From an uncultured delta proteobacterium (GTDB lineage: Bacteria > Desulfobacterota > Desulfobacteria > Desulfobacterales > JAHEIW01), in the NCBI GenBank assembly GCA_963706575.1, contig CAVPNL010000021.1, forward strand, positions 1-33,001: a stretch of 33,001 bases of DNA, read 5' to 3'. A model generated the notes under the pieces. That model made no database searches, was not told where the DNA came from, and saw only the letters and a program-made list of their open reading frames with translations. How positions within the stretch are numbered: position 1 is the stretch's first letter; every line of letters begins with the position of its first letter. Position numbers and translations under genes: made by a program. This document shows positions 3,089 through 5,213 of this stretch, one piece after another.

Positions 3089-3745
3089 GTGAAAACGCGA
3101 CGTCAATTCATCAAACTTATATTGGGTTTTTCAAGCGGCATGGGGATGGTATTCAGTCCAATTGCCAATGGGATCCAAGTTGTTTTCGCGAAAGCAAAAA
3201 AGATGATCCTGCCGAAAGGGACTCGCATGGACAGCCTTGTCGGTAAAAACCCCGCCAACCTGGACACCCGGAATTTGGACCTGACTCCGGTGCAAGCGTT
3301 TGAGACCATGGGTTTAGACGATCACGAGGTCAATTTTAAAAAGTGGCAGCTTGAAATAGACGGTCAGGTTCAGCGCTCCCTGAGACTCACTTATGATCAA
3401 ATAGTAGAAATGCCATCGATTGAAAGAAATGTTCTTTTGATCTGCCCGGGGTTTTTCGCTTATCACGCGCGTTGGAAGGGTATTTCCGTGGCCAAATTAT
3501 TAGAAACAGCCGGGGTGGGCCCTGGTGTAACCGATGTTACCTTCAGCGGCCCGAATGGAAGGTATGAAAAAACCGGGCGATTCCCCATAGAGGACATCAT
3601 CGCAGACAAAGTGTTTTTGGCATACCGTGTAAATGACAGCGTATTGCCCAAAAAGCACGGATTTCCCCTGCGGGTTGTGGCGGAGGACTATTATGGGGGG
3701 GACTGGGTGAAATATGTATATAAAGTCACTGCTAATAAATCATAA
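3089..3745 (+). CDS. Molybdopterin-dependent oxidoreductase (sulfite oxidase/MsrP-like) with Tat signal
   Basis: TRRQFIK twin-arginine motif; WQLEIDGQV, LLICPG (Mo-ligand Cys), ARWKGIS, LPKKHGFPLRVV, WVKYV motifs. Confidence 0.85.
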   Translation: MKTRRQFIKLILGFSSGMGMVFSPIANGIQVVFAKAKKMILPKGTRMDSLVGKNPANLDTRNLDLTPVQAFETMGLDDHEVNFKKWQLEIDGQVQRSLRLTYDQIVEMPSIERNVLLICPGFFAYHARWKGISVAKLLETAGVGPGVTDVTFSGPNGRYEKTGRFPIEDIIADKVFLAYRVNDSVLPKKHGFPLRVVAEDYYGGDWVKYVYKVTANKS

Positions 3746-3791
3746 CTGTTTGTTATTACTAATTTAAATTCATTTTAAGGAGAAAATTACA

Positions 3792-4100
3792 ATGAACACC
3801 ATTGAAAAATTCTGCGTCGGTTTAGTGCCGATACTTTTCCTGATCACTTTGCCTCTGGTTGACGGTTATCGGCCGGCTCATGCTGAGAGTCCGGAACTAT
3901 CCACTGCTGTCTTTTATGTTCAGTGATACGATGTCGGCGAGACAGCCCTGGAGGGGTTGGAAGGGATTAAACGGATTGAAAAAGGATTTCACAACTCCAA
4001 AGAGATCAACACCGTCTATTATGAGGCCTCAAAAATTACGATTGAAGAAATGGAGGACGCTCTCAAGAAAGCGGAAACCTACCAGGGAACCGTAAAATAG
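3792..4100 (+). CDS. Putative exported selenoprotein, mini-MsrA/HMA-like (102 aa, UGA at codon 45)
   Basis: RBS AAGGAG before ATG 3792; signal peptide ending AHA; in-frame TGA 3924-3926 in TAVFYVQ-U-YDVGE; frame stays open to TAG 4098-4100; SECIS-like hairpin follows. Confidence 0.75.
3943..3959 (+). promoter_or_regulatory. Candidate bacterial SECIS element
   Basis: CAGCCCT-GGA-GGGGTTG stem-loop beginning 16 nt after the UGA, with G at the start of the apical loop. Confidence 0.55.
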
Positions 4101-4126: not shown

Positions 4127-4705
4127 ATGAATAATAAGGCTAAAACTTCCTCGAATGCAGTCAATCCCCGGATTTGGCTTGAAGAATATCATGAATCTCT
4201 TTTTAAATATGCGCTTGCCCGGCTGCGGGATGCTGATCTTGCTGAAGAGAGCATCCAGGAAACTTTCTTGGCTGCCCTTCAATCGCAGAAAGGGTTTCAG
4301 GGTCTGGCATCTGAAAAAACATGGTTAATTAGTATTCTAAAAAGAAAGATTTACGATCATTTCCGAAGAATAGGCCGAGACAAGCAAATTAAAATGAGCT
4401 TTCCTATGGAGCGCTTAAGGAATGATGTCTTTGATAGCGGCAGAATACCTGCTGTCAGATCTCGTATTTGGTTTTCCGATCCTTCAATGGTTTACGAGCA
4501 AAAAGAATTCCTGAAAATTATTAAGCATGCTTTATCGGAATTACCCGACCGCACGGCGCAGGCTTTTATTCTTCGCGAAGTAGTAGAGTTGAGCAGCCAG
4601 GAAATATGTGAATTCATGGATATCAGCATTTACAATCTTTATGTGATGGTGCACCGCGCCCGGAAGCATCTAAGAGACGACTTGCAACTGAAATGGCTTC
4701 ATTAA
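4127..4705 (+). CDS. ECF RNA polymerase sigma factor
   Basis: Region 2 (LAEESIQETFLAA, FQGLASEKTWLISIL) and region 4 (ALSELP, AFILRE, SSQEIC, HRARKHLR). Confidence 0.9.
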   Translation: MNNKAKTSSNAVNPRIWLEEYHESLFKYALARLRDADLAEESIQETFLAALQSQKGFQGLASEKTWLISILKRKIYDHFRRIGRDKQIKMSFPMERLRNDVFDSGRIPAVRSRIWFSDPSMVYEQKEFLKIIKHALSELPDRTAQAFILREVVELSSQEICEFMDISIYNLYVMVHRARKHLRDDLQLKWLH

Positions 4706-4757: not shown

Positions 4758-5099
4758 ATGAAAAAATCATCTATGAAATACATAAAAGGATCCGTGTTTG
4801 TAATATTCGCTATTTATGCCGTTATGATCTCTAGTGGCTTTGCTATTGCTGGAGACTATTCAATGCAGAAAAACCTGACTGATATCGCCGACCTCATGTC
4901 GAAATGGTCAAAGCAATTAAGCACTGGAAAATTGGACTCCAATACCCAGGAAAAATTAGGCGAGATCATGTCCCAGACAAGCGAGGTACTACGTGATATG
5001 ACCATGCAAGGTCAAGGCGACATGCATATGGAGTATCACAATAAAATAATGGAAATGGAAAAGGCATGGGATCCATTCGATACTTCAGATAAGATGTGA
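4758..5099 (+). CDS. Secreted methionine-rich helical hypothetical protein
   Basis: RBS AAGGAG; signal peptide ending AIA; 10 Met in the 82-aa mature part. Confidence 0.75.
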   Translation: MKKSSMKYIKGSVFVIFAIYAVMISSGFAIAGDYSMQKNLTDIADLMSKWSKQLSTGKLDSNTQEKLGEIMSQTSEVLRDMTMQGQGDMHMEYHNKIMEMEKAWDPFDTSDKM

Positions 5100-5181
5100 T
5101 CAATTCAGAAATATCAAGTTGTAATCGGGAGAGGTAGGTTTTGGTCCGTATTGCAGCCCCGATGAGAAACCGAAAAAATTG

Positions 5182-5213
5182 AAGGCCCAATCAATCCTGA
5201 TTGGGCCTTTTTT
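5182..5213. terminator. Terminator between the accessory operon and convergent aspS
   Basis: AAGGCCCAATCA-ATCC-TGATTGGGCCTT plus T-tract; same stem as 205-232. Confidence 0.8.

Follow-up and report, generated by a model that had tools for sequence, protein, structure and literature searches.

A conserved, putatively exported selenoprotein family related to MsrA and HMA domains, with a putative role in periplasmic redox repair

The first 33,001 nucleotides of contig CAVPNL010000021.1 (assembly GCA_963706575.1) from an uncultured delta proteobacterium, referred to here as the window, very probably encode a genuine selenoprotein at positions 3792-4100, in which codon 45, a UGA, is predicted to be decoded as selenocysteine (Sec) in vivo. 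The protein belongs to a conserved family of putatively exported selenoproteins with cysteine counterparts, which is apparently undescribed. Its homology and gene neighbours suggest that it is a periplasmic selenol redox protein that functions in the repair of methionine sulfoxide or of oxidised proteins, a reading to which we assign a probability of roughly 0.6. The redox-repair role taken alone has even or slightly better than even odds.

The gene is located on the plus strand and is formed by 102 codons starting with the ATG at 3792, followed by the TAG stop codon at 4098-4100. The Shine-Dalgarno sequence AAGGAG can be read at 3777-3782, 9 nt 5' of the ATG, and a site of this type also precedes the start codon in close homologues. 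The in-frame TGA, codon 45, occupies positions 3924-3926. The ribosome-binding site, the start codon, the TGA, and the TAG end had all been named in the original prediction, and each was located in the sequence; the read-through translation offered there was reproduced exactly, with its 102 residues and with no cysteine in the mature part. Residues 1-31 (3792-3884) form a probable signal peptide, the last residues of which are RPAHA, cut before a glutamate. This assignment was made by eye, without a predictor, and agrees with the signal peptide named in the original prediction. The N-terminus is hydrophobic in all 27 sequences of the family alignment, named A1, and residues 4-32 have a predicted local-distance difference test (pLDDT) score below 50 in the AlphaFold model. 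The mature domain modelled by AlphaFold2 from A1 comprises the remaining 71 residues, 32-102 (3885-4097). The gene is missing from the listing of open reading frames (ORFs), as had been noted, because translation table 11 splits the frame at the TGA into ORFs of 44 and 47 amino acids. A search of the organism's own genome found the gene again at its own position, with one TGA inside.

The read-through protein was used in a six-frame search of 61 related genomes and is present in 21 of them, with 29 matches. Exactly one in-frame TGA is found in 27 of the 29 matches, one match contains a TAA, and one consists of the C-terminal half only. A scan of one genome per species, for which the 11 closest sequences served as the query, provided 56 further loci. 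According to the labels of the metagenome-assembled genomes (MAGs), the hosts of these loci are Desulfobacterales, Desulfatiglandaceae, Syntrophales, "delta proteobacterium", Nitrospirota/Thermodesulfovibrionales, and one Planctomycetota. Over all loci, 81 rows have TGA as codon 45, one has CGA (locus L059), and one has TCC (L044). When distinct 90-nt stretches are counted, TGA occupies the position in 73 of 75, the exceptions being the same two loci. This regularity greatly exceeds what chance would produce. Neither a Cys codon nor TGG is present at codon 45 in these 75 distinct stretches from all loci, and thus tryptophan, named beforehand as a residue that would speak against Sec, is not specified by a TGG codon in any locus examined. 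The 27 sequences of A1 are 32-85% identical to the protein from the window and are conserved on either side of the U, with F41, V43, U45, V48, G55, L56, G58, E71, Y77, A90, and L91 invariant.

Two of the loci carry unusual copies. L059 (4076-4165) has CGA, encoding arginine, in place of TGA together with the substitutions D47G and A52V, and may be a decaying or repurposed copy. L044 (2033-2284) is a degenerate copy in which the C-terminal half alone is recognisable, with an in-frame TAA ahead of it.

When 1.84 billion representative proteins were searched with the profile, 300 matches were obtained at E ≤ 0.001. In the U column of 220 database proteins aligned to the family profile, W was counted 91 times, C 59 times, a gap 77 times, and V, G, R, and S once each. 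Ten of the 59 entries with C are multi-domain proteins with true HMA domains, and about 49 are small proteins that resemble the family. The small Cys homologues that were inspected have signal-peptide-like N-termini and mostly contain the motif F-x-V-x-C-Y-D-V-G, the glutamate, and Y-D-P. These sequences indicate that natural Cys forms of the family exist. Homologues with TGA or Cys at codon 45 and conservation on both sides of it were what the original prediction proposed to look for. The full-length entries from metagenome catalogues (P0002-P0065 and others) show tryptophan at the Sec position, and other entries are N- or C-terminal fragments. The W most likely originates from TGA translated under table 4 on short contigs, because it appears only in called proteins and TGG is absent from codon 45 in every locus examined.

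It is highly improbable that the window encodes no selenoprotein, with UGA-45 either terminating a 44-residue peptide followed by a remnant or being read as tryptophan or another standard residue. The two short ORFs obtained with table 11, the 91 catalogue proteins with W, and the single CGA homologue agree with such an explanation. However, the frame is conserved both before and after the TGA among homologues of 34-84% identity, TGG is found in none of the 75 distinct stretches, and natural homologues have Cys at the position. The entries with W for which a contig size was seen lie on contigs no longer than 2.6 kb, for which gene callers may select table 4. TGA also ends 6 of the 21 long ORFs in the window as an ordinary terminator, and therefore the codon is not reassigned. 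Readings of the UGA as tryptophan under code 4, of the locus as two peptides, and of the gene as a pseudogene were rejected on the conservation of the TGA, the ordinary TGA stops, and the Cys forms.

A hairpin resembling a selenocysteine insertion sequence (SECIS), CAGCCCU-GGA-GGGGUUG, is located on the plus strand at 3943-3959, 23 nt after the UGA. It has seven base pairs, a GGA loop, and an energy of -9.6 kcal/mol. According to the legend of Fig. 2 in a 2026 review of prokaryotic selenoproteins (PMC13188914), bacterial SECIS elements have a loop of 3-9 nt with a G as its first or second nucleotide, a stem of 4-16 bp, a distance of 16-37 nt from the UGA, and a minimum free energy of -7.5 kcal/mol or lower. 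The hairpin from the window lies within all four of these limits. In 67 of 73 sequences, the 42 nt that follow the UGA have a folding energy of -7.5 kcal/mol or less. RNAalifold analysis of 73 distinct sequences resulted in a single consensus hairpin, in which columns 36-40 pair with columns 46-50. The aligned cells of the hairpin are paired in 95.9% of cases, as opposed to 17-61% when the partners are shifted over one, two, or three columns. Compensatory changes are present in three cells, with GUC...GAC in both L025 and L035 and with CUC...GAG in L086. The hairpin sits within the conserved A-L-E-G-L codons, the synonymous positions of which are nearly fixed in the stem: Ala52 is GCC in 62 of 64 sequences, Leu53 is CTG in 72 of 72, and Gly55 is GGG in 64 of 72. 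In contrast, the codons of the invariant Gly58 are spread among GGT (22), GGA (20), GGG (18), and GGC (13). The near-fixation speaks against UGA-45 being a stop or a standard residue. The fold of 73 nt around the UGA, which is no more stable than shuffled sequences (z of -0.26), is a point in favour of that explanation; the signal emerges only in the comparative analysis. Contigs of other organisms in two runs (X2 and X16) match only the 41 nt of the window at 3924-3964, which reach from the TGA through the hairpin, and diverge on both sides. Therefore, the recoding unit is more conserved at the nucleotide level than the rest of the gene.

The genome that contains the window encodes the complete Sec machinery, with selB (376.5 bits), tRNA-Sec (75.2), selA (604.8), and selD (380.3) all scoring above curated cut-offs. 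The presence of these four genes, which had been suggested as a check, argues further for decoding of the UGA as Sec, and every refutation test put forward with the original prediction turned out in its favour. Of the 61 related genomes, 52 have selB. The 21 carriers of the family include 16 with selB, and the five carriers in which it was not found are 68-85% complete. The presence of selB does not discriminate genomes with the family from those without it. The selD gene itself (G000:C5:349796-350719, L111) holds an in-frame TGA, and so does a second selD-like copy (C3:438965-439886, L112), which is present in two adjacent pieces. An ORF for an HMA domain in the same genome (G000:C6:245679-245858, L108) has two in-frame TGA codons at the positions of CxxC, giving GMT-U-MG-U, and looks like a UxxU metal-binding selenoprotein.

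The mature domain is predicted with high confidence to form a single ferredoxin-like beta-alpha-beta-beta-alpha-beta sandwich. The mean pLDDT of 10-residue blocks is 95-98 for residues 41-100 of the AlphaFold2 model. The predicted elements are beta1 (37-43), alpha1 (46-54), beta2 (59-67), beta3 (70-77), alpha2 (84-93), and beta4 (97-100). In the model, U45 directly follows strand 1 and is positioned at the N-terminus of helix 1, and Glu71 is on strand 3. A Foldseek search gave no match at E ≤ 0.001. Its best matches, starting at E 1.2e-3, are MerP, ATP7B, CopZ, and Atx1, and ranks 1-30 are nearly all HMA proteins. VIA re-alignment placed MerP (1osd) at the top with Z 10.4 and a root-mean-square deviation of 1.8 over 66 residues, with many other HMA domains at Z 8-9. 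The resemblance to the HMA fold proposed in the original prediction is borne out by these matches and by the profile comparison described below.

That the top structural matches are all metal binders favours a different function, in which the protein would be a periplasmic metallochaperone or metal scavenger similar to MerP or CopZ, and Sec45 a soft ligand for Cu(I), Hg(II), or Ag(I). A second copy or a partner protein would perhaps supply the rest of the binding site, and the gene would be induced together with repair genes under metal stress. This function is the main competing explanation; it is possible, but we regard it as doubtful. It agrees with the predicted export, which is shared with MerP, and with a profile search of the PDB, in which HMA domains rank first (E 2.4e-4) and MsrA has E 0.27 or worse. 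However, the protein has a single conserved candidate ligand: the GMxCxxC motif is absent, and A1 contains no second invariant Cys, His, or Met, so that the two-thiol site is not present.

Profile comparisons relate the family to both MsrA and HMA domains. Alignment of A1 with 12 MsrA sequences from the loci and the genome by hhalign has a probability of 96.5% and E 7.5e-10. It pairs AVFYVQ-U with ATFAGG-C, so that U45 corresponds to the Cys of GCFWC, Glu71 to the Glu of GHAE, and Tyr77 to the Tyr of YDP. The alignment contains one deletion of 17 residues and ends at about column 116 of 222 MsrA columns. The placement of the UGA on the catalytic Cys of MsrA, originally made by eye, and the absence of an internal loop and of the C-terminal half of MsrA are in agreement with this alignment. 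The Glu of the MsrA motif GHxE is catalytic. Alignment of A1 with four HMA domains from the same genome scores nearly as high (96.3%, E 2e-9) and begins at U45, which is placed on the second Cys of CxxC, a point in favour of the metal-binding function. However, the spacing F-x-x-x-U from strand 1 to the Sec is that of MsrA and not of HMA, and Glu71, the residue that pairs with the catalytic Glu of MsrA, is flanked by a gap of two residues in the HMA alignment. In terms of profiles, the family is about equally distant from MsrA and HMA, below the thresholds of both and without the defining motif of either.

No Pfam model, including PF01625 and PF00403, matches the read-through protein at E ≤ 0.1. 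The matches to NCBIfam models are all below threshold: NF041383 at E 1.6e-8, NF041115 at E 8.4e-4, and CopZ at 0.01. Of the "minimal MsrA/HMA-like domain" postulated at the outset, the likeness to both profiles stands, and membership of either family does not. The Cys homologues match PF01625 at E 0.0079-0.084, also below the cut-off. In the organism's own genome of 5.67 Mb, the PF01625 (PMSR) scan at E ≤ 1 found the gene of an MsrAB fusion alone, whereas PF00403 matched five other places, the selenoprotein gene not among them.

The similarities to MsrA (PF01625) include profile homology from strand 1 to helix 2, the F-x-x-x-C/U nucleophile at the N-terminus of helix 1, the invariant Glu and Tyr corresponding to GHxE and YDP, the exchange of Sec and Cys at the catalytic position, and the genomic link to MsrA, MsrB, and Msr-type molybdoenzymes. 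MsrA proteins that contain Sec, with the motif GUFWG/H, are listed in the review (PMC13188914). The family differs from MsrA in that the mature protein from the window has 71 residues compared to about 150 positions in the PMSR profile, in the loss of the 17-residue loop and the C-terminal half, in the sequence U-Y-D-V in place of C-F-W-G/C without a recycling Cys, and in the predicted export of all its members. With HMA proteins (PF00403: MerP, CopZ, Atx1, and the N-terminal domains of Cu-ATPases) it shares the fold (Z 8-10, root-mean-square deviation of about 1.8-2.0 over 61-67 residues) and the position of the reactive residue at the beginning of helix 1, and MerP is likewise small, exported, and free-standing. 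In contrast to HMA proteins, it has one Sec instead of GMxCxxC, a loop that is shorter by about three residues, an invariant Glu on strand 3, and neighbours that are Msr-type genes rather than metal pumps.

The best single model match is to the C-terminal domain of NF041383, the "VPGUxxT family thioredoxin-like (seleno)protein, type 2", which is OS_HP5 in Table 1 of PMC13188914. Residues 30-96 match profile positions 139-205 with 34.6 bits, compared to a cut-off of 275, and the Cys homologues match about positions 139-208 with E down to 6.8e-12. The MsrAB fusion encoded in the same genome likewise matches the model, at positions 139-231, and therefore this region is an MsrA-like module. NF041383 proteins carry the VPGU Sec in an N-terminal thioredoxin-like domain and have a longer C-terminal domain, extending to about position 280, whereas the protein from the window has neither the thioredoxin domain nor VPGU, and its Sec is inside the MsrA-like module. 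A database relative of 170 residues (P0206), with the sequence H-C-F-W-T-G-E, matches NF041383 at 135-279 with 108 bits and PMSR at 1-34 with E 1.7e-4, and links the family to MsrA. An atlas search with a natural Cys homologue found unnamed clusters and one cluster with a score of 0.79 in which PMSR is present on 13% of the members; it is a lead only. NF041115, the UxxU metal-binding (seleno)protein, is also a small HMA-like selenoprotein, but it has two Sec residues in a chelating UxxU compared to one in the protein from the window, which reaches 19.4 bits against a cut-off of 95. The weak matches to NF041115 and CopZ are in line with metal binding.

In the window, the selenoprotein gene is the fourth of six plus-strand genes enclosed by terminator-like hairpins at 422-449 and 5181-5210. 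The first hairpin precedes the putative operon, and the second, which is bidirectional, closes it. The operon is headed by an OmpR-type response regulator (709-1443), followed by a histidine kinase (1443-2924), both recognised by Pfam and NCBIfam models. The next gene (3089-3745) encodes a molybdopterin oxidoreductase of 218 amino acids of the sulfite-oxidase/MsrP type (Oxidored_molyb, PF00174, E 2.7e-30), which is exported by the twin-arginine translocation (Tat) pathway according to its KTRRQFIK motif near the start; it also has weak matches below cut-off to SorA, SoxC, and MsrP. Downstream of the selenoprotein gene are an extracytoplasmic function (ECF) sigma factor (4127-4705; Pfam and NCBIfam) and an ORF of 113 amino acids without a family (4758-5099), which possibly encodes an anti-sigma factor. 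The 113-residue ORF has a weak BAR-domain match (E 0.0046), probably by chance, and the closest relatives retain it along with the sigma factor (cluster c12).

To compare neighbourhoods across the family, ORFs of at least 80 amino acids within 3.5 kb were clustered by blastp and named by Pfam matches of the representatives. The 84 loci were reduced to 74 distinct ones, with L044, L101, and L103 dropped. Msr-type enzymes dominate the neighbourhood: exported MsrA, MsrB, or MsrAB occur in 28 of the 74 loci, Oxidored_molyb in 26, and cytochrome b561 in 5, and 47 loci have at least one of MsrA/B, Oxidored_molyb, and cytochrome b561. In 17 loci the gene directly upstream on the same strand is that of the molybdoenzyme, and in 10 others it encodes MsrA/B. 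Of the 36 MsrA/B neighbour ORFs listed, 35 start with a hydrophobic segment, as seen by eye, and the exception (L096) is cut at a contig end. A pair of arginines is present near the N-terminus in 25 of the 26 molybdoenzyme ORFs listed; the 539-residue protein of L097 lacks it within the first 60 residues. The prevalence of Msr-type enzymes argues against the metallochaperone, and so does the lack of a recurring P-type ATPase or mer/cop operon alongside the gene, a single ATPase fragment in L075 being the only instance. YHS-domain proteins in 12 loci and DUF364/DUF4213 "heavy-metal chelation" genes in two loci count in its favour.

Two-component genes are present within 3.5 kb in 29 of the 74 loci, and in the window the selenoprotein gene lies between the kinase and regulator pair and the ECF sigma factor with the 113-residue ORF, the two hairpins bounding the six genes as one unit. 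These arrangements are consistent with a periplasmic redox sensor, in which Sec45 would be oxidised by oxygen, copper, or hypochlorite-like oxidants. Either the kinase or the ECF sigma/anti-sigma pair would detect this oxidation, and the protein would regulate rather than repair. We consider such a function unlikely. The pair of the ECF sigma factor and the 113-residue ORF was found in only four of the 74 loci, all from the closest relatives, and many loci have no regulator nearby. Moreover, a two-component system is commonly encoded beside its own regulon, and a member of the regulon need not be the sensor.

The redox-repair reading can be put in terms of a mechanism. SelB and tRNA-Sec would decode UGA-45 as Sec, directed by the hairpin 23 nt downstream, and removal of the signal peptide would release a periplasmic domain of 71 residues. 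The domain is a pared-down relative of MsrA's catalytic N-terminal half, related to HMA as well, with Sec in place of the catalytic Cys and the catalytic Glu retained, and with the Tyr-bearing loop, Trp pocket, C-terminal half, and recycling Cys lost. Sec45, the sole redox-active residue, would be activated by its position where helix 1 begins, and the invariant Glu71 could serve as the acid. Co-expression with the Tat-exported molybdoenzyme would be under the control of the two-component system. It is possible that Sec45 attacks a sulfoxide or sulfenate to form a selenenic acid or Se-S intermediate. This intermediate would be resolved by a partner, because the protein has no second thiol. Alternatively, reducing equivalents may be relayed to or from the neighbouring Msr-type enzymes. 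Precedents for the recycling of a single Sec have reportedly been described: titles in the reference list of the review (PMC13188914) mention a selenoprotein glutaredoxin that reduces Sec-containing MsrA and dimerisation-mediated catalysis.

Several observations weigh against the proposed role or the evidence behind it. A lone Sec without a second Cys cannot complete a two-electron cycle by itself. The MsrA elements that handle the substrate are absent, namely the Phe/Trp pocket of GCFWG, the loop GGxKxNPTYxxVS (according to the MsrA alignment), and the C-terminal half, and therefore the classical MsrA mechanism is doubtful. The nearest structures are metal-binding HMA proteins and not MsrA, which appears only at Foldseek rank 31 and is not among the 50 VIA matches listed. 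The protein reaches neither the PF01625 nor the PF00403 cut-off, nor that of any NCBIfam model. No Msr-type neighbour is found in 27 of the 74 loci, and two groups of paralogues are located elsewhere, one with ABC_tran+GGDEF and Hist_deacetyl genes and the other with Trypco2. In 68 of the 70 additional same-strand ORFs listed from the neighbourhoods, no gene for a thioredoxin-like protein, DsbD, or CcdA recurs. The covariation of the hairpin is modest, with three cells, and its stem overlaps the conserved peptide. In RNA library X16, a 279-nt contig that has 13 differences covers positions 3760-4038, including the start codon, the TGA, and the hairpin; it lends weak support to expression of the gene, and DNA carry-over is possible. 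The underlying contig comparison covered two DNA runs and two runs labelled as RNA, and 35 of the differences found are not displayed; in X2, X3, and X15 the contigs leave parts of the gene uncovered. A 1.8-kb stretch was found with a word share of 0.40-0.68 in 14 DNA runs from 11 studies, and the labels of these runs are sediment, estuary, or marine-sediment metagenome.

A more specific and quite tentative proposal is that the protein is a free-standing periplasmic selenoenzyme of 8 kDa with a minimal MsrA core, formed by Sec and Glu, which would reduce sulfoxides or sulfenates in the cell envelope and be recycled by the molybdoenzyme or an Msr-type partner instead of thioredoxin. It would at the same time bridge MsrA and HMA as descendants of a common ancestor. 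If this were true, the system would give anaerobes that encounter oxidants a repair relay based on selenium, and MsrA and HMA domains would derive from one ancestor.

The review tabulates 119 prokaryotic selenoprotein families, nearly all with an accession of a Pfam, NCBIfam, or other model (PMC13188914, Table 1). No Pfam or NCBIfam model scanned reaches its cut-off with the protein from the window, and no match was found among the 119 families of that table as compared through the models. The Olavius symbiont paper reports six new families and 15 unassigned sequences with TGA (PMC1976440), and locus L063 comes from an Olavius-associated Delta 1 MAG. Literature searches for an MsrA-like bacterial selenoprotein or a periplasmic MsrP-linked one found no description; it is possible that the family had been sighted among the unassigned TGA sequences of PMC1976440. 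The gene is invisible to standard gene calling, and public catalogues carry fragments of the protein or what is most likely a false tryptophan. Homology and neighbours tie the use of selenium to extracytoplasmic repair of methionine sulfoxide in sulfate-reducing and related anaerobes of sediments. The 71-residue domain may serve as a model for the minimum MsrA active site needed for the chemistry. The roughly equal profile distance makes the long-suspected relationship between MsrA and HMA testable.

The neighbourhoods contain additional features. In related loci, an exported YHS-domain gene just downstream has an in-frame TGA, giving YGGYUAYAV, in the Desulfobacterales loci L021 (1837-2127 onward), L022, and L050, and the Cys form YGGYCAYAV in the Nitrospirota loci L057, L058, L068, L073, L075, L077, and L087. 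This gene fits the known YHS-domain selenoprotein family NF041384 of Table 1 in PMC13188914. The Nitrospirota-type loci L055, L067, L069, L071, L073, and L078 have genes for VTT/DedA, a pyridine nucleotide-disulphide oxidoreductase, and a GH15 glycosidase beside MsrA/MsrB. In the window, a short ORF at 179-436 encodes part of a GIY-YIG nuclease domain (positions 1-41 of the 78 in the profile, E 3.4e-8) and is followed by the hairpin at 422-449. The remaining genes of the window are housekeeping genes, and include a peptide ABC transporter, pantothenate genes, peptidases, aspS, and hisS.

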